DNA from: Escherichia coli
Lineage (GTDB): Bacteria > Pseudomonadota > Gammaproteobacteria > Enterobacterales > Enterobacteriaceae
DNA: 64,000 bases
Assembly (NCBI RefSeq): GCF_050320075.1
Contig: NZ_CP190021.1
Strand: one strand, 5' to 3'
In this document: positions 6,807 to 29,963 of the stretch, piece after piece
How positions within the stretch are numbered: position 1 is the first letter of the stretch
Layout of the letters: each line of letters starts with the position of its first letter
The notes under the pieces: model-generated
What the model saw: only the letters and a program-made list of their open reading frames with translations
Database searches by the model: none
What the model was told of the DNA's origin: nothing
Position numbers and translations under genes: made by a program

Positions 6807-7626
6807 GGCACTGTTGCAAATAGTCGGTGGTGATAAACTTATCATCCCCTTTTGCTGATGGAGCTGCACATGAACCCATTCAAAGGCCGGCATTTTCAGC
6901 GTGACATCATTCTGTGGGCCGTACGCTGGTACTGCAAATACGGCATCAGTTACCGTGAGCTGCAGGAGATGCTGGCTGAACGCGGAGTGAATGTCGATCA
7001 CTCCACGATTTACCGCTGGGTTCAGCGTTATGCGCCTGAAATGGAAAAACGGCTGCGCTGGTACTGGCGTAACCCTTCCGATCTTTGCCCGTGGCACATG
7101 GATGAAACCTACGTGAAGGTCAATGGCCGCTGGGCGTATCTGTACCGGGCCGTCGACAGCCGGGGCCGCACTGTCGATTTTTATCTCTCCTCCCGTCGTA
7201 ACAGCAAAGCTGCATACCGGTTTCTGGGTAAAATCCTCAACAACGTGAAGAAGTGGCAGATCCCGCGATTCATCAACACGGATAAAGCGCCCGCCTATGG
7301 TCGCGCGCTTGCTCTGCTCAAACGCGAAGGCCGGTGCCCGTCTGACGTTGAACACCGACAGATTAAGTACCGGAACAACGTGATTGAATGCGATCATGGC
7401 AAACTGAAACGGATAATCGGCGCCACGCTGGGATTTAAATCCATGAAGACGGCTTACGCCACCATCAAAGGTATTGAGGTGATGCGTGCACTACGCAAAG
7501 GCCAGGCCTCAGCATTTTATTATGGTGATCCCCTGGGCGAAATGCGCCTGGTAAGCAGAGTTTTTGAAATGTAAGGCCTTTGAATAAGACAAAAGGCTGC
7601 CTCATCGCTAACTTTGCAACAGTGCC
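6807..7626 (+). mobile_element. IS26 copy 2
   Basis: Terminal repeats identified; same orientation as copy 1. Confidence 0.95.
6852..7574 (+). CDS. tnpA: IS26 transposase
   Basis: 240-aa ORF nearly identical to copy 1 (one difference, D vs G near the C-terminus). Confidence 0.95.
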   Translation: MLMELHMNPFKGRHFQRDIILWAVRWYCKYGISYRELQEMLAERGVNVDHSTIYRWVQRYAPEMEKRLRWYWRNPSDLCPWHMDETYVKVNGRWAYLYRAVDSRGRTVDFYLSSRRNSKAAYRFLGKILNNVKKWQIPRFINTDKAPAYGRALALLKREGRCPSDVEHRQIKYRNNVIECDHGKLKRIIGATLGFKSMKTAYATIKGIEVMRALRKGQASAFYYGDPLGEMRLVSRVFEM

Positions 7627-11297: not shown

Positions 11298-12117
11298 GGC
11301 ACTGTTGCAAAGTTAGCGATGAGGCAGCCTTTTGTCTTATTCAAAGGCCTTACATTTCAAAAACTCTGCTTACCAGGCGCATTTCGCCCAGGGGATCACC
11401 ATAATAAAATGCTGAGGCCTGGCCTTTGCGTAGTGCACGCATCACCTCAATACCTTTGATGGTGGCGTAAGCCGTCTTCATGGATTTAAATCCCAGCGTG
11501 GCGCCGATTATCCGTTTCAGTTTGCCATGATCGCATTCAATCACGTTGTTCCGGTACTTAATCTGTCGGTGTTCAACGTCAGACGGGCACCGGCCTTCGC
11601 GTTTGAGCAGAGCAAGCGCGCGACCATAGGCGGGCGCTTTATCCGTGTTGATGAATCGCGGGATCTGCCACTTCTTCACGTTGTTGAGGATTTTACCCAG
11701 AAACCGGTATGCAGCTTTGCTGTTACGACGGGAGGAGAGATAAAAATCGACAGTGCGGCCCCGGCTGTCGACGGCCCGGTACAGATACGCCCAGCGGCCA
11801 TTGACCTTCACGTAGGTTTCATCCATGTGCCACGGGCAAAGATCGGAAGGGTTACGCCAGTACCAGCGCAGCCGTTTTTCCATTTCAGGCGCATAACGCT
11901 GAACCCAGCGGTAAATCGTGGAGTGATCGACATTCACTCCGCGTTCAGCCAGCATCTCCTGCAGCTCACGGTAACTGATGCCGTATTTGCAGTACCAGCG
12001 TACGGCCCACAGAATGATGTCACGCTGAAAATGCCGGCCTTTGAATGGGTTCATGTGCAGCTCCATCAGCAAAAGGGGATGATAAGTTTATCACCACCGA
12101 CTATTTGCAACAGTGCC
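11298..12117 (-). mobile_element. IS26 copy 3 (inverted relative to copies 1 and 2)
   Basis: Terminal repeats at 11298 and 12117; tnpA on minus strand. Confidence 0.95.
11350..12072 (-). CDS. tnpA: IS26 transposase
   Basis: 240-aa ORF identical to copy 2. Confidence 0.95.
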   Translation of the reverse strand: MLMELHMNPFKGRHFQRDIILWAVRWYCKYGISYRELQEMLAERGVNVDHSTIYRWVQRYAPEMEKRLRWYWRNPSDLCPWHMDETYVKVNGRWAYLYRAVDSRGRTVDFYLSSRRNSKAAYRFLGKILNNVKKWQIPRFINTDKAPAYGRALALLKREGRCPSDVEHRQIKYRNNVIECDHGKLKRIIGATLGFKSMKTAYATIKGIEVMRALRKGQASAFYYGDPLGEMRLVSRVFEM

Positions 12118-12937: not shown

Positions 12938-13375
12938 TATGTGTGCTGCTTAATTATCATATCTCCTGCCCGTTCTCTGCCGCACAGATCCGGTTTCCGG
13001 CTGTTACGGATCTTCCTCTCCCTCCGCACAGCGCCATCTCCCGTCAGCACAACATGTAGTGCTGAATTCAGCTGCTGATGACACTATATGTTGTGTCATC
13101 TCCCTGACCTGTGATGCGCCGCGCAGGGGCGGAAAACAGCGATATGATGATTTTCTCAGCGTGGTACACTTCCGGAAAGTTGTGATATTCCGGAAAGTCG
13201 GATCTGACGGAAACGGCTCTCCGGTAATTTAACGGCGTGGTTATATGGATGCTTGTTATCATGGTGATGATGATAACGGCATGATGTTATCAGACGGCGT
13301 GACGGTAAGGGCAGTGATGATGGATGACGTTATCGCATGACCGTCCCTGCCCGGAAAAGAAAAAAGGAGTCACCC

Positions 13376-13789
13376 ATGTTTTTTATTGAGAATGAAGGTC
13401 AGGCTGTCGCCGGAACGGATTACTGGCAGTCTGTACAGGCGCAGGCCGGATATGTCTACCTCAGCTGGAATGCCGGCGCAGCCAGGCTGCTTGTCCCGGA
13501 TGCGGCAAAACATTTACTCAGGGAGATGCGGGGGGCTGAGTACGTCATCATCAGTAAGGGAGCACTGCATGGCCGCGATGCGCTGGAACTGGTATTTGAA
13601 GACGGCAGCGATGCGCCGTTTGTGATCCACATGCTGAGTGAGCAGTGCGATCGCCTGCTCCCCGAAAACAACCAGGGAGGGGGTTTTGTTGTCACCGTCT
13701 GGACGCGTGGAGGTAACCAGCTCCGTTATCCGGGAAAGTACCGTGTTGTGGAAAACCTGCCCGACGTTTCCCCGTGGAGTGAACACTGA
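13376..13789 (+). CDS. Hypothetical protein translationally coupled to the downstream recombinase
   Basis: ATG at 13376 with AGGAG RBS (ORF track starts earlier at 13337); stop TGA overlaps TGATATG start of the recombinase. Confidence 0.6.
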   Translation: MFFIENEGQAVAGTDYWQSVQAQAGYVYLSWNAGAARLLVPDAAKHLLREMRGAEYVIISKGALHGRDALELVFEDGSDAPFVIHMLSEQCDRLLPENNQGGGFVVTVWTRGGNQLRYPGKYRVVENLPDVSPWSEH

Positions 13790-13790
13790 T

Positions 13791-14576
13791 ATGCAGCACC
13801 TGCCGGCACCGATCCACCATGCCCGGGATGCTGCTCAGCTTCCTGTTGCCATCGATTATCCGGCAGCGCTGGCACTCCGCCAGATGTCGATGGTTCATGA
13901 TGAACTGCCAAAATACCTGCTGGCCCCTGAAGTGAGCGCCCTGCTCCATTACGTGCCGGATCTGCGCCGCAAAATGCTGCTGGCCACACTGTGGAACACC
14001 GGTGCGCGCATTAATGAAGCACTGGCGCTGACGCGGGGGGATTTTTCGCTTGCGCCTCCGTATCCGTTTGTGCAGTTGGCCACTCTGAAGCAGCGGACCG
14101 AAAAAGCCGCCAGGACGGCAGGAAGAATGCCCGCCGGTCAGCAGACTCACCGGCTGGTTCCGCTCTCTGACGCCTGGTACGTCAGCCAGCTGCAGACGAT
14201 GGTGGCCACACTGAAAATCCCCATGGAACGGCGTAATAAACGAACAGGCAGGACAGAGAAAGCGCGGATCTGGGAAGTGACGGACAGAACGGTCAGGACC
14301 TGGATTGGGGAGGCGGTTGCCGCCGCTGCCGCTGATGGAGTGACGTTCTCTGTCCCGGTCACGCCACATACGTTCCGCCATTCCTATGCGATGCACATGC
14401 TGTATGCCGGTATACCGCTGAAGGTCCTGCAGAGTCTGATGGGGCATAAGTCCATCAGCTCAACGGAGGTCTACACGAAGGTCTTTGCGCTGGATGTCGC
14501 GGCGCGTCATCGTGTGCAGTTCGCCATGCCGGAAGCCGATGCGGTAGCGCTGATAAAACAACTTGAGAGGCGTTAA
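13791..14576 (+). CDS. Tyrosine site-specific recombinase (XerD/ResD-like, probable multimer resolvase)
   Basis: C-terminal HTFRHSYAMHMLYAG...LMGHKSISSTEVYTKV motifs (catalytic R-H-R-Y region); probable start MQHLPAP at 13791 within track ORF 13638-14576. Confidence 0.8.
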   Translation: MQHLPAPIHHARDAAQLPVAIDYPAALALRQMSMVHDELPKYLLAPEVSALLHYVPDLRRKMLLATLWNTGARINEALALTRGDFSLAPPYPFVQLATLKQRTEKAARTAGRMPAGQQTHRLVPLSDAWYVSQLQTMVATLKIPMERRNKRTGRTEKARIWEVTDRTVRTWIGEAVAAAAADGVTFSVPVTPHTFRHSYAMHMLYAGIPLKVLQSLMGHKSISSTEVYTKVFALDVAARHRVQFAMPEADAVALIKQLERR

Positions 14577-14823
14577 AAAGCCGTATTCGCGGTTCAGTCA
14601 AGGGGGAGCTGGTGCATTCATCTATGGAAGATAGAGCACCAAACTCATAGAGGCCACGTTCTCAGGCCAGAACAGTCTTATATCTCTGGCGCTGACAACC
14701 CATAGTACTTGCCTGGATGGGAAACTCTTCTTGTGCCGAGCGTAAGAGCCATCTGCCGGAACGCTTCCTCGCCAGTTCGCTCGCTACGCACAGTTACATG
14801 GCTGCGGCGAGGGCTGCCTGATT

Positions 14824-15150
14824 CTAATAATGATATTTCAGCATGATAGCAGCAATAAAATAGATTGCAGCTATCATGCTGTACACATACGGCCTAGCGC
14901 TCTGTTTATGTTATGCTATCTGCAATCTTGCGGCAATCTTGCTTCATCTGTCGATGCGATTCTGAATGAGGTTTCTTTTATTGTTAACGTGACACAAGTA
15001 TTCGGCTGTCAATTCCAGCACTCTGCTAAGTAGCAAGATTATTTATTGTTGCAATCTTGCTGCAAGCTGTTATCTTGTTCTGGAAGAGTTACTCTACCTA
15101 ATCTCAATCTGGTTTATATTGATGTTTGCTGCAAGATAGCAGCAAGTAAA
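14824..15150. repeat. Partition-site/operator iterons upstream of parA (TGCAATCTTGC and GCATGATAGCAGCAA units)
   Basis: At least six copies of the GCAAGATTGCA-type motif in both orientations, read from sequence. Confidence 0.7.
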
Positions 15151-15159
15151 GGGGGCTAA

Positions 15160-15792
15160 ATGGCCTGGATAGTTGGTTTTATTTCTCAGAAAGGTGGTGT
15201 GGGCAAAAGCACTAAAGCGAGAGCGTTAGCGCGTGAAGCATCCGCCTGTGGTATCAAAACAAAATTAGCTGATCTCGACTTGGAACAGGCAACGAGTGCT
15301 GAGTGGCATCGTAGACGTCTGTCAGCTGGTTTGTCACCGGTTGCTTCCGTTGAAGTGTTTTCAACAGCAAAGCAGGCGATAGAATCTGCCGGCGATTTTG
15401 ACCTTCTGATTCTTGATGGCCCTGCTCGTGCAAGTAAAGGTACTTCAGAAATTGCTAAGGTCGCCGACCTTATCGTCCAGCCAACGGGAGCCTCCCTTGA
15501 CGATCTTGTCCCGGCAATTAAAGTTTTCAACGCGTTGGTAAAAGAAGGTATACCACGTTCAAAACTGGTCTTCGCTTTAAGCCGGGTAGGTACCGAAGCG
15601 GAAGAGCTGGATGCTCGTGCATATATCAGTGAAGCAGGTTATGAAACTTTATCTGGATGCCTTTTTGAGAAGCCAGCATACAGAAAAGCGATGAATTCAG
15701 GACTCGCTGTGACAGAAACACGTTATAAAGGTTTAAACGAGAGAGCTGATGAACTTATCCAGGCACTCATCGATAAGATTGGAGAAGAGTAA
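15160..15792 (+). CDS. parA: ParA-family Walker ATPase (small type Ib partition ATPase)
   Basis: 210-aa ORF with deviant Walker A KGGVGKST. Confidence 0.9.
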   Translation: MAWIVGFISQKGGVGKSTKARALAREASACGIKTKLADLDLEQATSAEWHRRRLSAGLSPVASVEVFSTAKQAIESAGDFDLLILDGPARASKGTSEIAKVADLIVQPTGASLDDLVPAIKVFNALVKEGIPRSKLVFALSRVGTEAEELDARAYISEAGYETLSGCLFEKPAYRKAMNSGLAVTETRYKGLNERADELIQALIDKIGEE

Positions 15793-16166
15793 TGGCTGAT
15801 GCGTCAAAACTTAGAACTAAAAGAACCCGTAGTGGGTTGGGGGTACCCCCGGGCCCCGACGAAGTGGCTACCAGCTTGAATGCGCCTGAGATAGCTCCGG
15901 CTGTCGCTGCCACTGATGTTCAGAGACAACAGGCAGACTCATCGCCAGTGCACCATGAGCCTGTGGTTACGCAAACAGTGACCGAGGTATATACCCGCCG
16001 CGATGGCCGTTCTGCCAGAAAAACAAACAGGACGCTGGCATTTGCAACACGTGTCACACCTGCTTTCGACCAAGAGATCCGGGATATCGCAGAGCGTGAG
16101 GGGTTGAAACTGGTGGAAGTTCTGGAAAAAGCAGTTGAGGCATATAAGGAAAAACAGGGCTATTAA
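15792..16166 (+). CDS. parB: Partition adaptor (ParG/ParB-like, probable RHH C-terminus)
   Basis: 124-aa ORF coupled to parA (stop/start overlap); flanked by iterons. Confidence 0.6.
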   Translation: MADASKLRTKRTRSGLGVPPGPDEVATSLNAPEIAPAVAATDVQRQQADSSPVHHEPVVTQTVTEVYTRRDGRSARKTNRTLAFATRVTPAFDQEIRDIAEREGLKLVEVLEKAVEAYKEKQGY

Positions 16167-16167
16167 T

Positions 16168-16270
16168 CCGGGATGCAGCAATCTTGCTGCATTCTTTTTT
16201 TGTGTGCAATCTTGCAGCAAGATTTATGCTAGATAAATGCTAGATTGCTGCAAGATAAATGATATAATGC
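16168..16270. repeat. Second cluster of TGCAATCTTGC-type iterons downstream of the par operon
   Basis: Read from sequence (GCAATCTTGCTGCA, TGCAATCTTGCAGCAAGATT, AGATTGCTGCAAGAT). Confidence 0.7.
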
Positions 16271-16274
16271 TCAA

Positions 16275-16400
16275 ATTGAGTAGTTAACTGCCCAAGTGAA
16301 GTACGCAGCTTGAGTACTTACCTGTGGTTTATGAGCGTATTTACTTAATGTGAGTAGTTATTGTGTAAAGATGAATACTCAAGTTGAGTATAAATGGAGA
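16275..16400. repeat. parC-like iterons (TGAGTAnTTA units) upstream of the actin-like partition ATPase
   Basis: About six copies of (T/G)TGAGTA(G/C)TTA read from sequence. Confidence 0.6.
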
Positions 16401-16404
16401 TGGT

Positions 16405-17379
16405 ATGAGAATTTTTTGCGATGATGGTTCTACAAATGTGAAACTTGCCTGGTTTGAAGGCAAGACGCTGAAAAGTGCGGTATCAGTGAACTCTTTTCGC
16501 CATAACTGGAAAGTCGAGGGCTTAGGCAGCAGTCGTACTTATAACTATCTGCTTGATGGCCGTAAATATACCTACGACCCGGTCAGCGAAGATGCGATCA
16601 GCACGACTCATATTGAGTATCAGTACTCTGATACAAATGTGTTGGCAGTTCACCACGCATTACTGAACAGTGGCATTGAACCCCAGGAGATCGATCTCAC
16701 CGTTACGTTACCTATCAGCGAGTTTTACACGGCCGACTGCCAGAAAAATACGCTTAACATTGAGAGAAAAATTCGCAACCTGATGCGAGAAGTCACCCTG
16801 AACAAAGGGGGAACTTTTACCATTAAAAGCGTTGAAGTGATGCCTGAATCACTCCCGGCTGTATTTACTCGCCTAGTTACTGACAACGTTGGTCAGTACG
16901 AAAAATCATTGGTTATCGATCTCGGTGGTACAACTCTGGATGTCGGGGTTATTGTTGGCCAGTTTGAGGATGTTTCGGCTGTACATGGTAATCCTGATAT
17001 TGGTGTATCAATGGTCACGAAAGCCACGCTCACTGCACTGAAAATGGCCAGCAGTGATACCAGTCCAATGATTGCTGACGAGTTGATCAAAAACAGGAAT
17101 AACCTGGATTTTGTGGGGCAGGTTGTAAATGAGGTCTCTAAACTAAATCTGGTGCTGGATACCATTGATACAGCGATAAATAAACTGGGCGAGCTAGTTG
17201 TTGATGATTTGCTGCAGTATCGAAACGTAAACCGCGTATATATTGTCGGTGGCGGGGCTGCACTCATTGCTGATGCTGTTCGTAAGGCATGGAACCACCT
17301 TGGCGAAAAGGTGGTTCTTATGGATGAACCTCAGACAGCGCTGGTCCAGGCTATTGCACGCTTCAAAGCGGAGGAGTAA
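16405..17379 (+). CDS. stbA: Actin-like segregation ATPase ParM/StbA
   Basis: MRIFCDDGSTNVKLAW N-terminus (ParM phosphate-1 motif), DLGGTTLD and VYIVGGGA motifs; ATG at 16405 preferred over the TTG at 16384 used by the track. Confidence 0.85.
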   Translation: MRIFCDDGSTNVKLAWFEGKTLKSAVSVNSFRHNWKVEGLGSSRTYNYLLDGRKYTYDPVSEDAISTTHIEYQYSDTNVLAVHHALLNSGIEPQEIDLTVTLPISEFYTADCQKNTLNIERKIRNLMREVTLNKGGTFTIKSVEVMPESLPAVFTRLVTDNVGQYEKSLVIDLGGTTLDVGVIVGQFEDVSAVHGNPDIGVSMVTKATLTALKMASSDTSPMIADELIKNRNNLDFVGQVVNEVSKLNLVLDTIDTAINKLGELVVDDLLQYRNVNRVYIVGGGAALIADAVRKAWNHLGEKVVLMDEPQTALVQAIARFKAEE

Positions 17380-17382
17380 TCG

Positions 17383-17775
17383 ATGTACGAAGGCGAAGAA
17401 AGGAAAAAACTTTCACTCTACCTTCACCCGGAGGACTCTGCCGATTGTCTTGCACTGGCTGAAATCGAAACTGTTCCCCGGAAAAAACGGGGGGAGTTAT
17501 ATCGGCAGGCTTTGATAACCGGCCTGATAATGCATCAGCTTGATGAGCGAATTCCCGCCGTGTTAACCGCGCTATTCACCAGAGAATTGAATGCGGATGA
17601 GGTCATTAGTCAGATTGCCAGGATAACAGGCTGGAAACCCTCCTCCGGTGATTTAAAAGAGGTACTGAAGGCGTTGGGAGGGCTTCAGAGTACAGTTTCA
17701 CCAGAACACTCTCAGGATGACGGTGAACAGGCCCGTCTGAAAGCGGCTAGGGTGAAGATGCAAAACCTGATCTAA
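17383..17775 (+). CDS. stbB: ParR/StbB-like partition adaptor
   Basis: 130-aa ORF 4 bp after stbA. Confidence 0.6.
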   Translation: MYEGEERKKLSLYLHPEDSADCLALAEIETVPRKKRGELYRQALITGLIMHQLDERIPAVLTALFTRELNADEVISQIARITGWKPSSGDLKEVLKALGGLQSTVSPEHSQDDGEQARLKAARVKMQNLI

Positions 17776-17858
17776 AAAAGTCTCGCTCCGTGAAACCTGC
17801 AAAATTTCTCGGGGTGTGCGGCTTAATTTTTAGATTTCCGCGTTTCCCGTCATTTGAG

Positions 17859-18038
17859 TCAATGGAGTGCTGGTTGACAGCTCCTCACTCTGAAGGACGG
17901 GGATTCCCACATATGCAGCCAGATTTCCGGGTAGTGTGGTTTCAGACGTTGTTCGATTTCATTCTGTAGCGCCTGAAGTGTGCCTGATTTGAGTTTTTTT
18001 GTGCTCTGGCGGTCGAAAAGAATTTCAATGCGGATCAT
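17859..18038 (-). pseudogene. impC: impC-like (DinI-family) remnant, 59 codons, diverging after ~40 residues
   Basis: Minus-strand translation MIRIEILFDRQSTKKLKSGTLQALQNEIEQRLKPHYPEIW..., recognised from memory as the ImpC N-terminus; no umuD/umuC-like impA/impB follow; below the track's length cutoff. Confidence 0.55.
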
Positions 18039-18061
18039 GTTCTCATCTTCCTTTTCTTTTG

Positions 18062-18077
18062 CTGTATATATATACAG
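18062..18077. promoter_or_regulatory. Consensus LexA (SOS) box CTGTATATATATACAG
   Basis: Exact CTGT-N8-ACAG palindrome 24 bp upstream of the impC-like start. Confidence 0.85.
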
Positions 18078-18431
18078 TATTCTAATAACTGAATCCGCAC
18101 ACAGTCAAATGTCATTGTTCTGACTAAAAAACGCTCAATTCTCTGAGGGTATGGCTGTATGCCTGCTGTGGAGTGCTGTGTCCAGCTTATCCACAGCATT
18201 TTGTGCACGGTTCTGTGGACAAAATACCTGGTTACCCAGGCCGTGCCGGCACGTTAACCGGGCTGCATCCGATGCAAGTGTGTCGCTGTCGCCGGCCTCC
18301 TCACCCGGTCACGTTTCGTCGTTCCTCCTCCACGCGCTGCGGCTTCGGGGCCGCACCTGCATTCGTATGCGGTCGCCCGGTTACAGGTGCGGCACGGCCT
18401 GATGGAGGCCGCATGTGAGAGGAGAATTCCC

Positions 18432-19358
18432 ATGCCAAACTGGTGCAGTAACCGTATGCATTTTTCTGGTGAACCGGCACAGATTGCTGAGATTAAACGA
18501 CTGGCCAGTGGTGCCGTCACACCGTTTTATCGCCGCGCCACAAATGAAGGTATTCAGCTGTTTCTGGCCGGAAGTGCCGGACTTCTGCAGACCACTGAAG
18601 ATGTGTGGTTTGAACCGTGCCCCGGACTGACGGCTGCCGGACGTGGCGTTGTATCGCCGGAGAATATCGCGTTCACCCGCTGGCTGACACACCTGCAGAA
18701 CGGTGTACTGCTGGATGAGCAAAACTGCCTGATGCTGCATGAACTCTGGCTGCAGAGCGGTACTGGCCAGCGTCGCTGGGAAGGATTACCGGACGATGTC
18801 AGGGATACCATCACCGCGCTTTTCACCGCAAAAAGAGGTGACTGGTGTGGCTTCTGGAGTAACGAGGATGTATCGGTGTGGTGGAACCGTCTGTGTGACA
18901 ACGTACTGCCGGAAAAAACCATGCCGTTTGACCTGCTGACGGTTCTGCCCACCCGCCTTGATGTTGAAGTGAATGGCTTTAACGGTGGTGTTCTGAACGG
19001 TGTTCCTTCTGCATATCACTGGTATACCGAACAGTATGGCGTGAAGTGGCCTTGTGGGTATGACCTGAATATCAGCAGTCAGGGAGACAACTTCATTCAG
19101 GTTGATTTCGACACGCCGTGGTGTCAGCCGGAAAGCGACGTTATTGCAGAATTAAGCCGCCGTTTCAGCTGCACGCTGGAGCACTGGTATGCCGAACAGG
19201 GCTGTGATTTCTGTGGCTGGCAGTTGTATGAGCGCGGAGAGCTCGTTGATGTGCTGTGGGGGGAGCTGGAATGGTCTTCCCCGACAGATGACGATGAGCT
19301 GCCGGAAGTCACCGGACCTGCGTGGATAGTCGACAAGGTGGCGCATTATGGCGGATGA
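18432..19358 (+). CDS. Conserved leading-region protein of unknown function (cysteine/tryptophan-rich)
   Basis: ATG at 18432 with GGAGAA RBS (MPNWCSNRMHFSGEP...); track ORF starts earlier at 18387. Confidence 0.65.
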   Translation: MPNWCSNRMHFSGEPAQIAEIKRLASGAVTPFYRRATNEGIQLFLAGSAGLLQTTEDVWFEPCPGLTAAGRGVVSPENIAFTRWLTHLQNGVLLDEQNCLMLHELWLQSGTGQRRWEGLPDDVRDTITALFTAKRGDWCGFWSNEDVSVWWNRLCDNVLPEKTMPFDLLTVLPTRLDVEVNGFNGGVLNGVPSAYHWYTEQYGVKWPCGYDLNISSQGDNFIQVDFDTPWCQPESDVIAELSRRFSCTLEHWYAEQGCDFCGWQLYERGELVDVLWGELEWSSPTDDDELPEVTGPAWIVDKVAHYGG

Positions 19359-19742
19359 AGTATGACGGAGACGGGCGGGCTACCGCCCGTTTCTTTTCCG
19401 GTAAAGGATGTCGCCGTGCTCCTCTTTTTACTGCGCCGGCTGACGCGGCGCGGCATAAACGCTGCCTGTGGTCAGTGTCCCGCGTCCGGCCGGGCACGGG
19501 ACGGGCGCTTTTACCGCTCCCGGCTGGCGTCGGTGACAGTGTACGCCAGCCTGTCGCCCTTTTCTGATGAACGCCCTTCAAGCCGCTTTCGCGGCATAAC
19601 CTTGCCGTCAGAAAGACGACGGCTGCGGTATTCCACGGTCGGCCTGACCCGTTACCGGACGCGGTGAACAGCCCACAGGCAGCGGGGAACGGGCACCACA
19701 GGGGTGCCCTCCCGGTGCCCTCTGTAAGAGAAGGAGTTTGGT

Positions 19743-20426
19743 ATGTCCCGTTTTGTCCTCGGTAACTGCATCGATGTTATGGCCCGTATCCCTGATAACG
19801 CCATTGATTTCATCCTCACCGACCCGCCATATCTCGTCGGTTTCCGTGACCGTTCCGGGCGCACCATCGCCGGCGATAAAACCGATGAGTGGCTGCAACC
19901 GGCCTGTAATGAAATGTTCCGCGTACTGAAAAAAGACGCGTTAATGGTGAGCTTCTACGGCTGGAACCGCGTCGATCGCTTTATGGCCGCCTGGAAAAAT
20001 GCGGGATTCAGCGTTGTTGGTCACCTGGTCTTCACCAAAAACTACACATCGAAGGCCGCATATGTGGGCTATCGCCACGAATGCGCCTACATCCTGGCAA
20101 AAGGCCGTCCACGTCTGCCACAAAACCCGCTGCCGGACGTGCTGGGCTGGAAATATTCGGGCAATCGCCATCACCCGACGGAAAAGCCCGTTACCAGCCT
20201 GCAACCGCTGATTGAGAACTTCACACACCCGAACGCAATTGTGCTGGACCCGTTTGCAGGCAGCGGCTCAACCTGCGTCGCCGCCCTCCAGTCCGGACGC
20301 CGGTATATCGGTATCGAGCTGCTTGAGCAGTATCACCGTGCCGGGCAGCAACGCCTTGCCGCCGTGCAACGGGCCATGCAGCAGGGGGCCGCGAATGATG
20401 ACTGGTTTATGCCGGAGGCTGCGTAA
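19743..20426 (+). CDS. Orphan beta-class DNA amino-methyltransferase (N6-adenine or N4-cytosine)
   Basis: Motif IV DPPY at residues 27-30 precedes motif I (LDPFAGSGST) near the C-terminus; no restriction endonuclease gene adjacent. Confidence 0.85.
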   Translation: MSRFVLGNCIDVMARIPDNAIDFILTDPPYLVGFRDRSGRTIAGDKTDEWLQPACNEMFRVLKKDALMVSFYGWNRVDRFMAAWKNAGFSVVGHLVFTKNYTSKAAYVGYRHECAYILAKGRPRLPQNPLPDVLGWKYSGNRHHPTEKPVTSLQPLIENFTHPNAIVLDPFAGSGSTCVAALQSGRRYIGIELLEQYHRAGQQRLAAVQRAMQQGAANDDWFMPEAA

Positions 20427-20648
20427 ATGAACTATGCAGGACACGAAAAACTGCGCGCCGAAGTGGCGGAGGTGGCCAATGCCATGTGCGACCTGCGTAC
20501 AACCATGAATGAGATGGAGCAGCGGTACAGCTTTAATGCCGACACCCTGCCGGAACGTCTGGTGCGTCAGACGCTGTTTCGCGCAAACCGCCTCCTGATG
20601 GAGGCATATACCGAAATTCTGGAACTGGAAGCGTGCTTTAAAGATTGA
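20427..20648 (+). CDS. Hypothetical small protein coupled to the methyltransferase
   Basis: 73-aa ORF starting at the MTase stop (TAAATG). Confidence 0.5.
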   Translation: MNYAGHEKLRAEVAEVANAMCDLRTTMNEMEQRYSFNADTLPERLVRQTLFRANRLLMEAYTEILELEACFKD

Positions 20649-20661
20649 GAAGGAGACGAGA

Positions 20662-21096
20662 ATGTACGGAACATGCGAAACGCTATGCCGGGAGCTGGCA
20701 GTAAAGTATCCGGGAGACATGCCGCTGATGCTGGTTATCTGGTCCCCGGAAGAGATTCAGGCCCTCGCTGACGGAATGGATATTTCCCTGTCCGATCATG
20801 AAATCAGAACCGTCCTGGCGCGCCTGGAGGACATCCCGGAAGACCAGCGGACTGAATCCGGTATTTCTTCCGGCGTGGCGATGGAGATCATCAATAACGT
20901 GAGCGAAAACCGCCAGGTGACCGTCCCTGCTGAACTGCTGGCGTCCCTGATTCAGACCGCTGAACAGGCATTGTGGAAACGTGAATGGGCCGCCCGGGAT
21001 CATGGCCTCGCCGTCCCGGAATGCGTCACCCGCCGTCAGGCGGTGATTAATCAGGCCCGCACCCTGCTGAAAAACAACAGACACGAAAACGACTGA
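20662..21096 (+). CDS. Hypothetical protein, paralog of the 22808-23230 gene
   Basis: 144-aa ORF with RBS AAGGAGACGAGAA-ATG identical to that of the paralog; shared RQVTVPA motif. Confidence 0.65.
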   Translation: MYGTCETLCRELAVKYPGDMPLMLVIWSPEEIQALADGMDISLSDHEIRTVLARLEDIPEDQRTESGISSGVAMEIINNVSENRQVTVPAELLASLIQTAEQALWKREWAARDHGLAVPECVTRRQAVINQARTLLKNNRHEND

Positions 21097-21141
21097 TGTT
21101 ATCGCCGCCTCCGGGCGGCGATTCAGGGAGAACGATTAATC

Positions 21142-21918
21142 ATGAACGAAAACACAACACTGAACGCACTGATTTGTCGTCACGCCCGCAACCTGCTGCT
21201 GGCGCAGGGCTGGCCGGAAGAGACGGATGTTGACCAGCGGAACCCGAACCATCCGGGCTGGATCAGCATTTATGTTCTGCTGGATGCGCCCCGGCTGGCG
21301 ACGTTACTTATCAACCGTCACGGCGGCGCACTGCCGCCGCTCCTGGCCTCCGCCATTCACAAACTGACCGGAACCGGGGCGGAACTTGTACTGTCCGGCA
21401 GTCAGTGGCAGTCGCTGCCGGTACTTCCGGCAGACGGAACGCAGGTGTCTTTCCCGTATGCCGGTGAGTGGCTGGCAGAGGACGAAATCAGGGCAGTTCT
21501 TGATGCGGTACGCGATGCAGTACGCTGTGTCAGTTACCAGGTGGCAGAAGATACGCGGCGTATCCGGGCGGCGCTGACCACCACCGGTCAGACGTTACTG
21601 ACCCGCCAGACGCGCCGCTTTCGCCTGGTCGTGAAGGAGAGCGATCACCCCTGCTGGCTCGATGAGGACGACGAAAACCTGCCCGTGGTGCTCGACGCCA
21701 TCCTGAACCGGGGCGCACGTTTTTCGGCGGTGGAAATGTATCTGGTCAGCGATTGTATTGAACATATCCTGTCCAGTTGGCTGGCCTGGGATGTGCTGCG
21801 TATACCGGATGAACCGCCCCGCCGCTGGTTTGACCGTGGTGTTCTGCGGGAGGTGGTCCGGGAAGCCCGGAACGAAATCCGCAGCATGGCGGATGCCCTG
21901 GCAAAAATCCGGAAATGA
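21142..21918 (+). CDS. Hypothetical protein
   Basis: 258-aa ORF with GGGAGA RBS. Confidence 0.6.
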
Positions 21919-21974
21919 TGACACTGGCGGGGTAAATCCCCGCCTTTTTCCTGCCGGTCCCCGGACAGAGCACA

Positions 21975-22315
21975 AAGGACGTCGCCGCCGGCTCCGCTTT
22001 ACCCGGCCATGCAGGGCATGGCCTTGTGGTTTTTCAGTTATGTGGCCGCCGTGTCGTGTGCGGGCTGTGCCGTGCCTCCATCTTAGCCGGGCTGGCAGGG
22101 ATGCAAGGGTACGCTTCGCCGCTGCGGTCACCCGGTCCCTCCTTCCCGTCTGCCGTGATTTTCCGGTCGTTCACCCGCTCAGATTTCGCGGTCTCACCCT
22201 CCAACTCCCGCCAGCCGTGTGCGTCAGGCTGCGGCTTCCCTTGCGCCCTGTGCATCCCCACCTTATCGCCCGGCTTTTATGGAGGCACGGCACCGCCCGG
22301 TGTCGCGGAATATGT
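21975..22315. repeat. Leading-region repeat family A, copy 1 (~340 bp), candidate ssDNA promoter (Frpo/ssi-like)
   Basis: Near-identical to 28922-29265; ends immediately upstream of the KlcA-like gene. Confidence 0.65.
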
Positions 22316-22335
22316 GAACAACGGAGGAAAACATC

Positions 22336-22761
22336 ATGCAATATGCGAAACCTGTCACTCTGAACGTTGAAGAGTGCGACCGTCTGTCTTTTCTGCCTTA
22401 CCTGTTTGGCCAGGATTTTCTGTATGCCGAAGCGTCTGTATACGCGCTGGCGAAACAAATGATGCCGGAATATGAAGGCGGATTCTGGCACTTCATCCGA
22501 CTGCCGGACGGTGGCGGTTACATGATGCCGGATGGCGACCGTTTTCACATGGTGAACGGTGCAAACTGGTTTGACCGTACCGTGAGTGCTGATGCCGCAG
22601 GCATCATCCTTACCTCCCTTGTGATTAACCGCCAGTTGTGGCTGTACCACGACAGCGGGGATGCAGGACTGACCCAGCTTTACCGGATGCGCGATGCGCA
22701 GTTGTGGCGTCACATCGAATTTCACCCTGAATGCAACGCGATTTACGCAGCACTGGACTGA
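22336..22761 (+). CDS. klcA: KlcA/ArdB-family anti-restriction protein
   Basis: 141-aa ORF with pattern LSFLPYLFG...[19 protein letters not shown]...[10 protein letters not shown] resembling RK2 KlcA from memory. Confidence 0.75.
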
Positions 22762-22807
22762 TTAACGGACGGGGCGGCAATGCCGCCCCTGTAAAGGAGA
22801 CGAGAAC

Positions 22808-23230
22808 ATGTACTGTACTGTTAAAGAAATTATCCGCGATGTACTGGATACAGACGTGCCGGACAGTGAATGCGTTTTTGCCGTGGTGCTGACCCGTGGG
22901 GATGTGCGCCACATAGCCCAGGACTGGAGTCTGACAGACGATGAGCTGGAAACCGTCATGCAGCGGCTGGACGATGCCTTTGAATATGGTGCGGATGTCA
23001 GCGTTGTTCACGGCGTTGTTCGTGAACTGATGGAAGAAAAGCGCGCCAGCCGTCAGGTGACAGTCCCGGCGGTGATGCTGGAAAAAGTGTTGGCGCTGGC
23101 AGGCAGTGAAATGAAGCGCCTGTATGCCGTCGGGAGTGAGAACGGGGGCGACGGTGATGCGTTCGTCAGGGAAGAACGCGAAGCAATGGACGTTGTGTTA
23201 CAGGCGCTGGACGGGGAGCACATGTCATGA
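22808..23230 (+). CDS. Hypothetical protein, paralog of the 20662-21096 gene
   Basis: 140-aa ORF; shared RBS and RQVTVPA motif. Confidence 0.65.
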   Translation: MYCTVKEIIRDVLDTDVPDSECVFAVVLTRGDVRHIAQDWSLTDDELETVMQRLDDAFEYGADVSVVHGVVRELMEEKRASRQVTVPAVMLEKVLALAGSEMKRLYAVGSENGGDGDAFVREEREAMDVVLQALDGEHMS

Positions 23231-23418
23231 ATATCAGCACAGAAACCCGCGAAATTCTGCGCAATTACAAAGCCGTGATTAATGCGCGGCGTCGTGAAAT
23301 GGGGCAGAAACCGCTCACCACTGCGCAGATTGTTGATGAAATCTGCGATTTTGTGGCGAATCAGCAGGCGGTTTTCCTCGGTGGTCACTATATCCTTCAG
23401 GGCAGCAGAAACAGGTGA
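23227..23418 (+). CDS. Hypothetical small protein, translationally coupled (TCATGA overlap)
   Basis: 63-aa ORF. Confidence 0.4.
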   Translation: MNISTETREILRNYKAVINARRREMGQKPLTTAQIVDEICDFVANQQAVFLGGHYILQGSRNR

Positions 23419-23620
23419 TACAGGGCAGGCGGTGGAGGCCGCCTGTCAGCCCGCGCGAAAACCCCTGGCAGGCTGACGCCTGCCGGAAATGCGGGGTGCA
23501 GCGCCTGCGGCGCTGCCGGCCCGGCTTTCCGGTCAGAAGGTAGTGTATGGCTGTATGCAGGGAACAGGTGTGATATTCCGTGACACTGTCACCGTTTCTG
23601 GCTGTCTTTTATTGCGCCCA

Positions 23621-24125
23621 CTTCGGCTCCCGGCTGCCTGGCGGCATCCGGTCGTCAGGCCCGACTCCGACAGGCAGCTGCTGGCGCACCCGCCAGTCTC
23701 CGCCGAACCCGCTGGCGCGGTTTCGGGCTGCCGCTACGGTCCGATGCGTGAAAACCCGGCTTGCAGCGACCGTTCCGGTCGCGCCGCCCCTGTCGCGCCG
23801 TGACCTGCGCTCCCTGCACACCTGACGGTGTGTGAGGAAACTGCGCCTGATGGCGCAGCAGTCTTCCCTCCTGCCACCACCCCTGCGGCCTGTTTCCCGC
23901 TGTGGACTTTCCGGGGGGCAGACGTAACCCCCTCCCGTTCCATCTGTCCAGGGTGAGATGCACCGGCCACAAAATTTTTAGCCATGAACCCGGCTAAAAA
24001 TTTTGCGTCCGCCCCCGGACAGCTGTCCCGTGAGGCGGTAAACGGGCCCCCATCGGAAAGGTCCACTGCGGGGAGAAACCCCTGTGAAGTGGACGGCAGG
24101 AGGAGCTTTCGCTCCTCTGAAGGGG
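23621..24125. repeat. Leading-region repeat family B, copy 1 (~505 bp), candidate ssDNA promoter upstream of ssb
   Basis: Highly similar to 29964-30465 and partly to 33013-33345; contains a 14-bp perfect hairpin CAAAATTTTTAGCC-N8-GGCTAAAAATTTTG. Confidence 0.65.
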
Positions 24126-24186
24126 CACATGAACGTCCCGTCGCCGGTATCCGGTTTATCTCACATCTTTCAGTCAGGAGGTTCTT

Positions 24187-24714
24187 ATGAGTGCACGTGG
24201 TATCAACAAGGTCATCCTCGTCGGGCGTCTGGGCAATGATCCGGAAGTCCGTTACATCCCCAACGGGGGCGCAGTGGCAAACCTGCAGGTGGCCACATCA
24301 GAAAGCTGGCGTGACAAACAGACGGGGGAGATGCGGGAGCAGACGGAATGGCACCGCGTGGTGCTGTTCGGCAAGCTCGCGGAAGTGGCAGGTGAATATC
24401 TGCGCAAGGGTGCGCAGGTCTACATCGAAGGTCAGCTTCGCACCCGTAGCTGGGAAGATAACGGTATCACCCGTTACGTCACTGAAATTCTTGTTAAGAC
24501 CACGGGCACCGTGCAGATGCTGGGACGTGCACCACAGCAGAACGCTCAGGCGCAACCGAAGCCTCAGCAGAATGGGCAGCCACAGAGTGCTGACGCGACG
24601 AAAAAAGGTGGCGCGAAAACGAAAGGCCGTGGACGTAAGGCCGCGCAGCCAGAGCCTCAGCCGCAACCGCCGGAGGGGGAGGATTACGGGTTTTCAGACG
24701 ATATCCCGTTCTGA
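24187..24714 (+). CDS. ssb: Single-stranded DNA-binding protein
   Basis: 175-aa [36 protein letters not shown]... with Q/P-rich linker and acidic DDIPF tail. Confidence 0.95.
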
Positions 24715-24765
24715 CTGGCCTGACTGTGATAACCGCCCCGCCCTGCGCGGGGCATCACCGGAGAG

Positions 24766-25005
24766 ATGAGGATGAGCGAATATTTCAGAATACTTCAGGG
24801 ACTGCCGGACGGCTCCTTTACCCGCGAACAGGCGGAAGCCGTTGCCGCACAGTACCGGAACGTCTTTATCGAGGATGATCAGGGAACGCATTTTCGCCTG
24901 GTTGTCCGTCAGGATGGCACGTTGATCTGGCGCTCCTGGAATTTTGAGGACTGTGCCGGGTACTGGATGAACCAGTACATCAGGGATTTCGGGATTCTTA
25001 AGTAA
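24766..25005 (+). CDS. Hypothetical small protein
   Basis: 79-aa ORF between ssb and the ParB-like gene. Confidence 0.5.
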
Positions 25006-25057
25006 GAGAGGTGCCGGACGCGCGAACGTCCGGCAGGACATAAGCAATTATAAGGGG

Positions 25058-27022
25058 ATGATTATGCCTGTAACGAAGTGTGAACCAGAAACCACCCGCA
25101 AAGCAAGCCGTAAATCTGTAAAAACGCAGGAAACTGTCCTGTCTGCCCTGCTGGCGCAGACGGAGGAAGTGAGCGTGCCGCTGGCCTCGCTGATTAAATC
25201 ACCGCTGAATGTGCGCACGGTGCCGTATTCTGCGGAGTCCGTCAGCGAACTGGCGGAGTCCATTAAGGGCGTCGGACTGCTGCAGAATCTGGTCGTGCAT
25301 ACCCTGCCTGGTGACCGTTACGGTGTCGCCGCAGGTGGTCGCCGACTGGCTGCACTCAACATGCTGGCAGAGCGTGGCATCATTCCGGCTGACTGGCCTG
25401 TACGCGTGAAGGTTATTCCGCAGGAGCTGGCGACGGCTGCATCAATGACTGAAAACGGTCATCGTCGGGATATGCACCCTGCCGAACAGATTGCCGGATT
25501 CCGTGCGATGGCGCAGGAAGGCAAAACGCCTGCACAAATCGGTGATTTGCTGGGCTATTCGCCCCGCCACGTTCAGCGAATGCTGAAACTGGCAGACCTT
25601 GCGCCTGTCATCCTCGATGCGCTGGCAGAAGACCGCATCACCACAGAGCACTGTCAGGCGCTGGCGCTGGAGAACGACACCGCGCGTCAGGTGCAGGTGT
25701 TTGAAGCCGCCTGCCAGTCGGGATGGGGCGGTAAACCGGAAGTACAGACCATTCGTCGTCTGGTGACCGAAAGTGAAGTGGCGGTGGCAGGTAACAGTAA
25801 ATTCCGCTTCGTGGGGGCTGATGCTTTCTCACCTGACGAACTGCGTACTGATTTGTTCAGCGATGACGGGGACGGTTATGTCGACCGCGTGGCGCTCGAT
25901 GCTGCCCTGCTGGAAAAACTCCAGGCTGTCGCTGAACACCTTCGGGAAGCCGAAGGCTGGGAATGGTGCGCCGGACGCATGGAGCCTGTCGGTGAGTGCC
26001 GTGAGGATGCCGGAACATACCGCTGTCTGCCGGAGCCGGAAGCGGTGCTGACGGAGGCAGAAGAAGAACGCCTGAACGAACTGATGACGCGTTACGACGC
26101 GCTGGAAAACCAGTGTGAGGAATCCGACCTGCTGGAAGCAGAAATGAAGCTGATGCGCTGCATGGCGAAGGTCAGGGCGTGGACGCCGGAGATGCGTGCC
26201 GGAAGTGGCGTGGTGGTGTCCTGGCGTTATGGAAACGTATGTGTCCAGCGTGGTGTGCAGTTGCGCAGTGAAGATGACGCGACTGATGACGCTGACCGCA
26301 CGGAACAGGTGCAGGAGAAAGCGTCAGTGGAGGAAATCAGTCTGCCGTTGCTGACGAAAATGTCTTCCGAACGCACGCTGGCAGTCCAGGCAGCACTGAT
26401 GCAGCAACCGGACAAATCTCTGGCACTGCTGGCATGGACGCTCTGCCTGAATGTGTTTGACAGCGGAGCGTACAGTAAACCAGCACAAATCAGCCTGGAA
26501 TGTAAACATTATTCGCTGACCAGCGATGCGCCGTCAGGGAAGGAAGGTGCCGCATTCCTGGCGCTGATGGCAGAAAAAGCCCGTCTTGCGGCCCTGTTAC
26601 CGGAGGGATGGTCACGGGACATGACGACGTTCCTGTCACTCAGTCAGGAGGTGCTGTTATCCCTGCTCAGTTTCTGCACCGCATGCAGCCTTAACGGTGT
26701 CCAGACCCGCGAGTGTGGTCGCACGTCACGCAGTCCGCTTGACTCACTGGAGAGCGCCATCGGTTTTCACATGCGCGACTGGTGGCAGCCGACGAAAGCA
26801 AACTTCTTCGGACACCTGAAAAAGCCGCAGATTATCGCAGCCCTGAATGATGCCGGACTGTCCGGTGCCGCACGGGACGCAGAGAAGATGAAGAAAGGCG
26901 ATGCCGCTGAACATGCAGAGTTCCATATGAAAGACAACCGCTGGGTGCCTGGCTGGATGTGTTCACCACGTCCACAGACGGATGCCACTGAACGCGCCGA
27001 TAACCTGGCTGATGCCGCCTGA
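25058..27022 (+). CDS. ParB/Srx-like N-terminal domain protein of the leading region
   Basis: 654-aa ORF; N-terminal region has a ParB-box-like GGRRLAA motif and an HTH-like segment. Confidence 0.75.
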   Translation: MIMPVTKCEPETTRKASRKSVKTQETVLSALLAQTEEVSVPLASLIKSPLNVRTVPYSAESVSELAESIKGVGLLQNLVVHTLPGDRYGVAAGGRRLAALNMLAERGIIPADWPVRVKVIPQELATAASMTENGHRRDMHPAEQIAGFRAMAQEGKTPAQIGDLLGYSPRHVQRMLKLADLAPVILDALAEDRITTEHCQALALENDTARQVQVFEAACQSGWGGKPEVQTIRRLVTESEVAVAGNSKFRFVGADAFSPDELRTDLFSDDGDGYVDRVALDAALLEKLQAVAEHLREAEGWEWCAGRMEPVGECREDAGTYRCLPEPEAVLTEAEEERLNELMTRYDALENQCEESDLLEAEMKLMRCMAKVRAWTPEMRAGSGVVVSWRYGNVCVQRGVQLRSEDDATDDADRTEQVQEKASVEEISLPLLTKMSSERTLAVQAALMQQPDKSLALLAWTLCLNVFDSGAYSKPAQISLECKHYSLTSDAPSGKEGAAFLALMAEKARLAALLPEGWSRDMTTFLSLSQEVLLSLLSFCTACSLNGVQTRECGRTSRSPLDSLESAIGFHMRDWWQPTKANFFGHLKKPQIIAALNDAGLSGAARDAEKMKKGDAAEHAEFHMKDNRWVPGWMCSPRPQTDATERADNLADAA

Positions 27023-27073
27023 TGAACAACCACACCGCCCCGCCGGAGACGGGGCGGCAGAGGGAGAAATACG

Positions 27074-27511
27074 ATGATGAATACCGAACTGACACTGAAT
27101 GCCCTGCAGTCCATGAATGCCCAGGAATATGAAGAAATCCGTGCTGCGGGAAGCGATATGCGCCGTAATCTCACTCACGAGGTGATGCGTAAAGTGGACG
27201 CACCGGCTAACTGGATGATGAACGGAGAGTATGGCAGCGAGTTCGGGGGCTTTTTCCCCGTCCAGGTTCGTTTCACGCCAGCCCACGAACGTTTCCACCT
27301 GGCATTATGTTCGCCGGGAGACGTCTCTCAGCTCTGGATGCTGGTTCTGGTGAATGGTGGTGGACAGCCTTTCGCCGTCGTTCAGGTGCAACATATCTTC
27401 ACGCCTGCCGCGATCAGTCACACGCTGGCGCTTGCCGCGACACTGGATGCGCAGGGATACAGTGTTAACGACATCATCCATATCCTGATGGCAGAAGGAG
27501 GTCAGGCATGA
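27074..27511 (+). CDS. psiB: Plasmid SOS inhibition protein PsiB
   Basis: 145-aa ORF recognised from memory; immediately followed by psiA. Confidence 0.9.
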
Positions 27512-28227
27512 GCGCACGTTCACGGGCACTGATCCCCCTCAGCGCAGAACAACAGGCCGCCATGCAGGCGGTGGCTGTCACAGAACAACGTCGTCGTCAG
27601 GGACGCACACTTTCAGCATGGCCTTATGCCACCGCTTTCTTTCGCTGCCTGAATGGCAGTCGCCGGATTTCGCTGACCGATCTCCGCTTTTTTGCCCCTG
27701 CGCTGACGAAGGAGGAATTTCATGGCAACCGTCTCCTGTGGCTGGCTGCCGTGGATAAACTGATTGAAAGTTTTGGGGAAGTCTGTGTTCTTCCCCTGCC
27801 ATCCGATGCGGGGCACCGTCTGTTCCCGTCCGTGCCTTTTCGTGAAGGTGAGCGTCGTCGTCAGAAAACCACGCTGACAGAGCAGAAATACAGCCGCCAG
27901 CGGGAACGTGAGGCAGAACGACGGGAACTGGAATACCAGACATGTTTTGCTCAGGCGCAGATTGACCTTGCGTTTCATACTCCCGCCACGGTCGGAAGCT
28001 GGTTGTCCCGCTGGTCTGGTGTTGTTGAGGAGCATGATCTGGAAACGATTTTCTGGGGGTGGTGCGGGCGTTTTCCATCACTGTCATCATTTGACCGGTT
28101 TTTCTGGCAGGAGGAACCACTCTGGCGGCTGATTTTTGAAGCCGGTGAGGCCGGTCGTGGTGCACCGGTACAGGTACGTGCACTTGAGCAGTGGATGATC
28201 CCGAACAAGCTGGAGAACGTAATATGA
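27508..28227 (+). CDS. psiA: Plasmid SOS inhibition protein PsiA
   Basis: 239-aa ORF overlapping the psiB stop (ATGA). Confidence 0.9.
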
Positions 28228-28820
28228 TGAAATCAGACGAAAAATACCAGGTTCCCGCGTGGATGCGACCTCTGTTGCCGTTGCTCTGCAACACCGGGGG
28301 GAACGATCCGGAAGAACTGCTGAATGATACAGAAACCACTGCCAGTGCGAATGTTGTCCGTTATGTACTGATAGTTGCTGTGCGGTCGCAGGTTGATCTG
28401 CTGCAGCTTCTGTACAGGAAAGGGCTGTTGCGCACAGAGATACCAGGTGGCTTTTCACCGGAAGAAGCGCAGGCACTCCTGGATAATCTGGTGCGCAGCC
28501 ATATCAGCAAGGCGCTGTCGGGCGAGCGAATGGCAGCCCGTGACAGAAATGCCGATCTGGCCTGGATTGGACAGCAACTGGTCGATGACGCCTGGTTTGT
28601 CCGTGCCACACTGGAAGCGCATGGGATGAGCGTCGGAAATGAGAGTCCCCCTGCTCCGCCGGAGACAATGCCGGACATACAGACACGGGAACTGGTGATG
28701 TTGATCAAGCGACTGGCATCATCGCTGAAAGCGGTGAAACCGGACAGTTGTGTGGTGCGTGAAGCGCAGGACTGGCTGCGCGACAGAAAACTTGTGGATA
28801 TCACAGATATTCTCCGGTGA
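28224..28820 (+). CDS. Hypothetical protein translationally coupled to psiA
   Basis: ATGATGA overlap with psiA stop; 198 aa from ATG 28224 (track ORF starts at 28191). Confidence 0.55.
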   Translation: MMKSDEKYQVPAWMRPLLPLLCNTGGNDPEELLNDTETTASANVVRYVLIVAVRSQVDLLQLLYRKGLLRTEIPGGFSPEEAQALLDNLVRSHISKALSGERMAARDRNADLAWIGQQLVDDAWFVRATLEAHGMSVGNESPPAPPETMPDIQTRELVMLIKRLASSLKAVKPDSCVVREAQDWLRDRKLVDITDILR

Positions 28821-28921
28821 ACCAGGCATGTATATTTTACGCAGGGACACGCCGATCATGATCGTTTCATATCAGGGGTGGTCTGGAGGTCATGCGGCGT
28901 GTCCTCTGCACTCGCCGGAAT

Positions 28922-29265
28922 AAGGAAGTCGCCGGCGGCTCCGCTTTTACCCGGCCATGCGGGGCATGGCCTTGTGGGGTTTCAGCTCTGTGGCCTCAGC
29001 GTCGTGTGCGGGCTGTGCCGTGCCTCCATCTTAGCCGGGCTGGCAGGGATGCAAGGGTACGCTTCGCCGCTGCGGTCACCCGGTCCCTCCTTCCCGTCTG
29101 CCGTGATTTTCCGGTCGTTCGTCCGCTCAGGTTTCGCGGCCTCACCCTGCAACTCCCGTCAGCCGTGTGCGTCAGGCTGCGGCTTCCCTTGCGCCCCTGC
29201 ATCCCCGCCTTATCGCCCGGCTTTTATGGAGGCACGGCACCGCCCGGTGTCGCAGAACATGTGAC
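28922..29265. repeat. Leading-region repeat family A, copy 2, candidate ssDNA promoter upstream of ardA
   Basis: Near-identical to 21975-22315. Confidence 0.65.
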
Positions 29266-29281
29266 TATGGAGGATTCGGGA

Positions 29282-29782: not shown

Positions 29783-29963
29783 TTTACTCCCCCGCTCCGG
29801 CGGGGGTATGGCCTGCCAGGCCGCCGGAAAACCCTGGCAGGCTTACGCCTGCCTGAAATGCAGGAGGGCCGCGCCTGCGGCGCTGCCCTTCCTGCCCGTC
29901 ATGGTGTGAGGCATTTTTCTGTTATGTCGTTTCTGTTGTTCTGATTTCCGGAGGCGGGGACAC

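Follow-up and report, generated by a model that had tools for sequence, protein, structure and literature searches.

A truncated impC gene behind a near-consensus LexA box is very probably a scar of the plasmid SOS-mutagenesis operon impCAB

The SOS-mutagenesis operon impCAB is found in more than 80% of I-complex plasmids and is toxic when over-expressed (PMC10286972). In the plasmids pS43-1 (LC567058) and ColIb-P9 (NC_002122), the same promoter as at the locus described here drives impC (249 nt), impA and impB, and the operon is convergent with parB/stbB; in intact plasmids the stop codons of impB and parB/stbB are 1 nt apart. In the impCAB operon of pTF2, the orthologous primary LexA box, TACTGTATATACATACAGCA, has a heterology index of 1.60 and a weak site, AACTGAATCCACACACAGTC, has an index of 13.49, and in a hyper-SOS strain ImpC of pTF2 was up 21-fold and ImpA 9-fold (PMC12211044). 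Here we analysed a stretch of Escherichia coli plasmid DNA (64,000 nt of contig NZ_CP190021.1; hereafter the 64-kb window) in which only the beginning of this operon is present. An initial annotation, made from the sequence letters, had read the locus as the remnant of an SOS-mutagenesis operon, and the comparison with known plasmids bears this out: the open reading frame (ORF) is a truncated impC, and its LexA box and promoter are those of impCAB. We consider it very probable that the locus is a pseudogene scar of impCAB, left by replacement of the neighbouring stb module through joins that involved an insertion sequence (IS), with a peptide that is most likely inert. The remnant is ordinary, widespread and already catalogued, and it reflects module replacement rather than local deletion; the present analysis adds the precise structure of the junction and the evidence for replacement over local deletion. 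Our literature search returned papers on intact impCAB only and no explicit description of the truncated impC allele.

The primary LexA (SOS) box, CTGTATATATATACAG, occupies positions 18062–18077, with no strand assigned, and was recognized by the pattern CTGT-N8-ACAG together with a match to the 20-mer consensus. It is the sole CTGT-N8-ACAG in the 64-kb window, a loose pattern that is not rare by chance (0.87 expected per window; at least one in 55 of 100 shuffles). The longer match is far more selective: the 20-mer TACTGTATATATATACAGCA on the minus strand (18060–18079) agrees with the LexA consensus TACTG(TA)5CAGTA at 19 of 20 positions, and none of 100 shuffles contained a match at three or fewer mismatches. 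The consensus box of the initial annotation is therefore real and near-consensus, and it is nearer to consensus than the boxes of intact impCAB operons; the gap between box and ATG, given there as 24 bp, measures 23 nt (18039–18061).

Upstream of the ORF, the minus strand carries the sigma-70 promoter of the imp operon (18079–18108), consisting of a −35 hexamer TTGACT (18108–18103), an 18-nt spacer and a −10 hexamer TAGAAT (18084–18079) that together match 10 of 12 consensus positions. This is the only promoter-like site across 17600–18500 and is identical to the promoter of the intact-impCAB plasmid pS43-1. The LexA box begins 1 nt past the −10 hexamer and so probably spans the transcription start. 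Over the −35 hexamer and spacer lies another LexA-like site, CTGAATCCGCACACAG (18089–18104, no strand assigned), which is weak and is the homologue of the weak pTF2 site, and a Shine–Dalgarno sequence, AAGGAAG, can be read on the minus strand at 18047–18053, 8 nt ahead of the ATG. Since the orthologous pTF2 promoter is SOS-induced, the promoter at this locus is, by analogy, probably still repressed by LexA. The minimal pattern CTG-N10-CAG occurs 52 times in the window as against 19 ± 4 in shuffles, an excess that probably reflects CTG/CAG codon usage or the counting of palindromes, not extra LexA sites; only the occurrences at 18062 and 18089 are located at a promoter.

The ORF that follows, here called impC′, runs on the minus strand from an ATG at 18038 to 17859, stop codon included, and has the 59 codons reported initially. 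Its genuine impC part, defined by homology to impC of pS43-1 and ColIb-P9, spans 17911–18038 on the minus strand and corresponds to nt 1–128, that is, codons 1–42 plus two bases of codon 43. Residues 1–41 are identical to ImpC of both plasmids at 40 of 41 positions (K15 in place of N15), which substantiates the earlier remark that the first ~40 residues are ImpC-like, and codon 42 carries a point change (CAT versus CGT). At the DNA level there are 2 substitutions relative to pS43-1 over 128 nt and then an abrupt break at nt 128, window position 17911. Codons 43–59 are unrelated to ImpC, codons 43–55 being supplied by an IS remnant and codons 56–59 by a psiA-like scrap. An independent small gene was considered and rejected on the grounds of the 40/41 identity to ImpC followed by the abrupt break.

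Intact ImpC aligns over residues 3–79 with residues 2–78 of E. coli DinI (PDB 1GHH), and its AlphaFold model (pLDDT 84) has strands at 2–9, 39–46 and 50–54 and helices at 18–32 and 59–74. Of these elements, impC′ keeps the first strand, the first helix and three residues of the second strand, and the third strand and the C-terminal helix are missing; the AlphaFold model of the 59-aa product likewise has no C-terminal helix, with a pLDDT of 67 and a pTM of 0.44. The Pfam DinI family (PF06183) gives a partial, sub-threshold match to impC′ (model positions 3–25 of 63, E 0.007). The acidic C-terminal helix of DinI, according to what Voloshin et al. reportedly described in 2001, is the RecA-binding element. 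Because the RecA-contacting helix of the fold is missing, DinI-like activity of the impC′ peptide is unlikely, and the models suggest that the peptide is most likely inert; the possibly functional DinI-like peptide of the initial annotation thus loses its footing, most of strand 2 being absent as well as strand 3 and the C-terminal helix. The 59-aa product occurs on at least 1000 contigs in public protein databases, under the names hypothetical, DinI family or impC protein. In a tblastn search of 72,556 plasmids it was found at 95% identity or more in 131 records, and in about 2,300 further records, at 60–90%, the match fell within a gene annotated at full length as ‘DinI-like family protein’ or impC.

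Neither of the downstream genes of the operon is present. tblastn over the 64-kb window found no impA, which encodes a UmuD-like S24 peptidase (best E 1.1 with ImpA), and no impB, which encodes a Y-family DNA polymerase (best E 4.9 with ImpB), so that the absence of both genes before the end of stbB at 17775, as first reported, extends to the whole window. A tblastn search for relics of ImpA or ImpB in the filler at 17776–17910 also found none. With the UmuD′-like impA and the Y-family polymerase gene impB gone, the plasmid cannot supply its own error-prone polymerase. An intact impC–impA–impB operon occupies exactly this position, flanked by the DUF1281 gene and stbB/parB, in ColIb-P9, pS43-1 and more than 2000 PLSDB records. 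The initial annotation would have been contradicted by a complete small gene whose relatives have no impAB here; the ORF is instead truncated, and IncI1 relatives carry intact impCAB at this place.

The alignment to intact IncI1 operons that had been proposed as a check was informative about how the genes were lost. Homology of the window to ColIb-P9 and pS43-1 is lost within resD, at 14545, and is regained at 17911, corresponding to impC nt 128; relative to pS43-1 the window is collinear over 13003–14545 (yedA to resD) and 17911–34220 (5′ end of impC and leading region), with no collinearity between the two. The intervening block (14546–17910, no strand assigned) stands in for the 3′ part of resD, yefA, yegA, parM, stbB, impB, impA and the 3′ part of impC of canonical IncI1 plasmids and measures 3365 bp as against 4877 bp in pS43-1. 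Its genes are of the same kinds as the canonical ones (ParA, a small protein, ParM and StbB) and belong to a different allele: apart from an 80% match over 67 bp, the DNA of the stbAB/parA block shows no homology to the IncI1 allele, and positions 14715–17841 are 85–93% identical to the Klebsiella IncFIA/FII plasmid pKP91. The last gene of the block is stbB, which encodes a plasmid partitioning/stability family protein; it lies on the plus strand at 17383–17775, convergent with impC′.

Both edges of the block have features of their own. The left crossover, 14545/14546, falls within the 3′ end of a resD-type site-specific integrase gene, so that resD of the window combines part of the IncI1 allele with part of another. 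On the right, the 52–66 nt past stbB (17776–17841, core 17790–17841) recur at 88–90% identity in roughly a thousand Klebsiella plasmids, in other contexts, for instance about 0.9 kb downstream of sopB, and the homology of the Klebsiella copies to the window ends at 17841 in every case. The Klebsiella copies form the beginning of a conserved segment of ~350 bp that leads to a convergent umuDC-type operon, and position 17841 looks like a recurrent module boundary.

Elsewhere in the window, three copies of one 240-codon ORF (5006–5728, 6852–7574 and 11350–12072) lie in a region that matches records annotated mph(A)/mrx(A), the closest being NZ_CP069958.1; the region resembles a resistance island, bounded by IS elements, that was inserted near repA in the IncI1 backbone, and we presume that the bounding elements are probably of the IS26 type. 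The leading region contains dispersed repeats of ~330–680 bp (21975–22328 and 28922–29274; also 23441–24117, 29964–30457 and 33011–33338) that cross-match several places in pS43-1 and are possibly single-strand promoters or ssi-type elements upstream of ssb, psiB and ardA.

Between impC′ and the stb module lie 69 nt of foreign filler, made up of an IS right-end remnant and a psiA-like scrap. The remnant (17874–17910, minus strand) consists of the terminal 37 nt of a TnpB-type IS200/IS605-family right end, with a subterminal hairpin and a terminal GTCAA; in the sense of impC′, from 17910 to 17874, it reads GTGGGAATCCCCGTCCTTCAGAGTGAGGAGCTGTCAA. It was identified by identity to the right end that lies just after a tnpB 3′ fragment in pKpN06-CTX (3501–3537 of the piece compared), at 33 of 37 positions here and 35 of 37 in variant plasmids. 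With the tnpB 3′ end of pKpN06-CTX as query, the alignments of diverged TnpB elements from plasmids of Salmonella, Edwardsiella and Methylophaga all ended at the same base. Because these related elements and the tnpB right end of ColIb-P9 share the terminus or its motif, position 17874 can be taken as the natural IS terminus, and the sequence comparison indicates that impC nt 128 abuts an internal position of the right end. The tnpB 3′ region has no further match in the window, and the tnpB gene and left end are absent, leaving the remnant only. A weak Rfam match of the HgcC/sot type was found on the Klebsiella copy in pKpN06-CTX, such RNAs overlapping IS1341-type elements. An Rfam scan of 17600–18300 at E up to 10 gave chance-level matches only and therefore points to no known RNA family there. 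In ColIb-P9 a full TnpB gene (32482–33697) lies directly downstream of psiA, with a hairpin and GTCA motif right after its stop codon; the psiA region of the window has no TnpB element of this type.

The remaining filler, 17840–17873 on the plus strand, is 30/34 identical to psiA of Klebsiella plasmids (2501–2534 of the piece compared) at a borderline E of 0.01, its edges falling at the IS end and at the limit of the pKP91 homology. A psiA origin of this fragment is plausible but unproven. No microhomology was evident at the impC/IS join, and a search for the source of the filler in the window itself, pS43-1 and ColIb-P9 gave no match except the generic IS right-end motif in ColIb-P9.

The junction is not confined to this plasmid. 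An 80-nt probe across it, counted when covered at 80% or more, was found in 188 PLSDB records of IncI1 and IncF plasmids, among them the 86,908-bp IncI1 (ColIb-like) plasmid of S. Typhimurium ST4/74 and the IncF plasmids NS-NP030_P1, ETEC1739 unnamed3 and pEC507_1, which have MOBF/MPF_F systems. An assembly artefact was rejected, the junction being identical in about 188 independent complete plasmids. Five copies from IncI1 and IncF plasmids, which differ by 3–4% overall, have identical breakpoints. The same junction in ~190 IncI1/IncF plasmids and the same breakpoints in diverged copies argue that the junction is one old event that later spread between backbones. All five diverged copies keep the promoter, the Shine–Dalgarno sequence, the CTG..CAG half-sites and an ORF of exactly 59 codons. 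The box of the IncF copies has the sequence CTGTATATGCATACAG, except for one copy with ..GCATGCAG; a 2-nt deletion has shortened the promoter spacer to 16 nt and destroyed the second LexA-like site in three of the four variant plasmids, NS-NP030_P1 being the exception; and both changes in the tail, V51A and R52G, are non-synonymous. Judged from these sequences, the pattern of changes in box, spacer and tail is compatible with drift, and the ORF length and control sites kept in five copies, together with the wide occurrence, could be a sign of continued use and not just of youth.

We propose a single origin of the junction, in which an IS element took part and illegitimate joining occurred at least two or three times, leaving impC nt 128 fused to the 37-nt IS right end, then to the psiA-like scrap of ~34 nt and then to sequence downstream of a Klebsiella-IncF-type stbAB. 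Later transfer into IncI1 and IncF backbones would have proceeded by homologous recombination in the flanks, that is, in resD and the conserved leading region. In an uninduced cell, LexA on the box would shut the promoter; after DNA damage, a short transcript would be made and translated into the 59-aa chimera of 41 ImpC residues and an 18-residue non-ImpC tail. Lacking a clear terminator, this transcript would run antisense into stbB.

The gene order around the locus is otherwise as in intact plasmids (resD, parA, a gene for a hypothetical protein, parM and stbB convergent with imp, then the DUF1281 gene), and given how closely the impB and parB/stbB stops adjoin there, a one-step deletion in a canonical IncI1 plasmid, from impC codon 43 to the end of impB beside stbB, would have had a superficially similar outcome. 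Such a deletion is nevertheless highly improbable, because the stbAB/parA block that it would have left in place has no DNA homology to the IncI1 allele and is ~93% identical to pKP91, because 69 nt including the IS right end come from neither partner, and because the same junction is also found in IncF plasmids. The deletion of the polymerase genes inferred in the initial annotation accordingly stands in so far as impA and impB are lost; a plain in-place deletion does not fit the pKP91-like allele of the block and the 69 nt of foreign filler.

The other readings concern what the relic does now. It could have been co-opted, either as an SOS-induced 59-aa chimera with a new regulatory activity or through an antisense stbAB transcript that couples partition or stability to DNA damage; this is very unlikely, and if true it would explain why promoter and ORF have persisted unchanged across the IncI1 and IncF lineages. 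A selected, functional small protein that modulates, say, RecA or chromosomal UmuD′2C would agree with the intact promoter, Shine–Dalgarno sequence and start codon, with an ORF of constant length in five diverged copies and on at least 1000 contigs, and with the 1–2 substitutions that separate lineages in the 128 impC-derived nt. We give it very little credence all the same. The product has neither strand 3 nor the C-terminal helix and only a small part of strand 2, its Pfam match is partial and sub-threshold and its fold confidence low, its tail, in which both changes are non-synonymous, derives from an IS end and antisense filler, and most records carry no PGAP annotation for it. Divergence of the 128 nt is likewise low relative to intact impC, which speaks for general conservation or recency, and with ~5 changes expected in 128 nt the deficit is not significant. 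Alternatively, the LexA-controlled promoter may now serve as an SOS-inducible antisense promoter against the convergent stbAB, or its box as a LexA-titrating site. The promoter is only ~260 nt from the 3′ end of stbB, a scan of the minus strand between 17859 and stbB revealed no evident terminator, and the minus-strand intergenic RNA folds no more stably than shuffles (z −0.72), so that antisense read-through into stbB is possible. This is not a new property, because the impB and parB stops already adjoin in intact plasmids and convergent read-through into stbB/parB could occur there with nothing new required; moreover, the IncF variants have an altered box and spacer, as drift predicts. A present role of this kind is hardly to be expected.

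The pseudogene scar that we favour has practical consequences. Plasmids with this allele, which include the ColIb-like plasmid of ST4/74 and hundreds of IncI1/IncF resistance plasmids, should not be credited with plasmid-borne SOS mutagenesis in annotation or typing, even where the gene is labelled ‘impC’ or ‘DinI family’. The junction of impC nt 128 with the 37-nt IS right end is a convenient lineage marker, and the locus illustrates on a small scale how modules are exchanged by Klebsiella-type IncF and IncI1 backbones. Loss of impAB may have come at little cost or been mildly advantageous: over-expressed impCAB is toxic, as noted above (PMC10286972), so that the loss may be of benefit, which would explain the wide spread of the allele.

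Set against described systems, the locus is closest to the impCAB operon of IncI1 and other I-complex plasmids (TP110, ColIb-P9, R64-type plasmids and pTF2; also Shigella pINV), with which it shares the promoter, both LexA sites, the Shine–Dalgarno sequence and impC nt 1–128, as well as the position between the DUF1281 gene of the leading region on one side and a partition module on the other; it differs in having no 3′ part of impC, no impA and no impB, and in being fused to foreign DNA at nt 128. Relative to E. coli DinI (1GHH) and the PF06183 family, impC′ retains the N-terminal strand 1 and helix 1, whereas its native sequence ends at residue 41 of ~82 without the C-terminal acidic helix, and it therefore fails family membership by completeness. 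The ParM/StbB (stbAB-like) module resembles that of pKP91-type plasmids through 66 nt downstream of stbB; in Klebsiella the conserved segment then continues, whereas in the window it breaks off at 17841, where the filler and then impC′ follow. With TnpB-type IS200/IS605 elements such as those of ColIb-P9 and pKpN06-CTX, finally, the remnant shares the terminal hairpin and the GTCA(A) right-end terminus, but it amounts to 37 nt and lacks tnpB, a left end and a complete omega-RNA scaffold.
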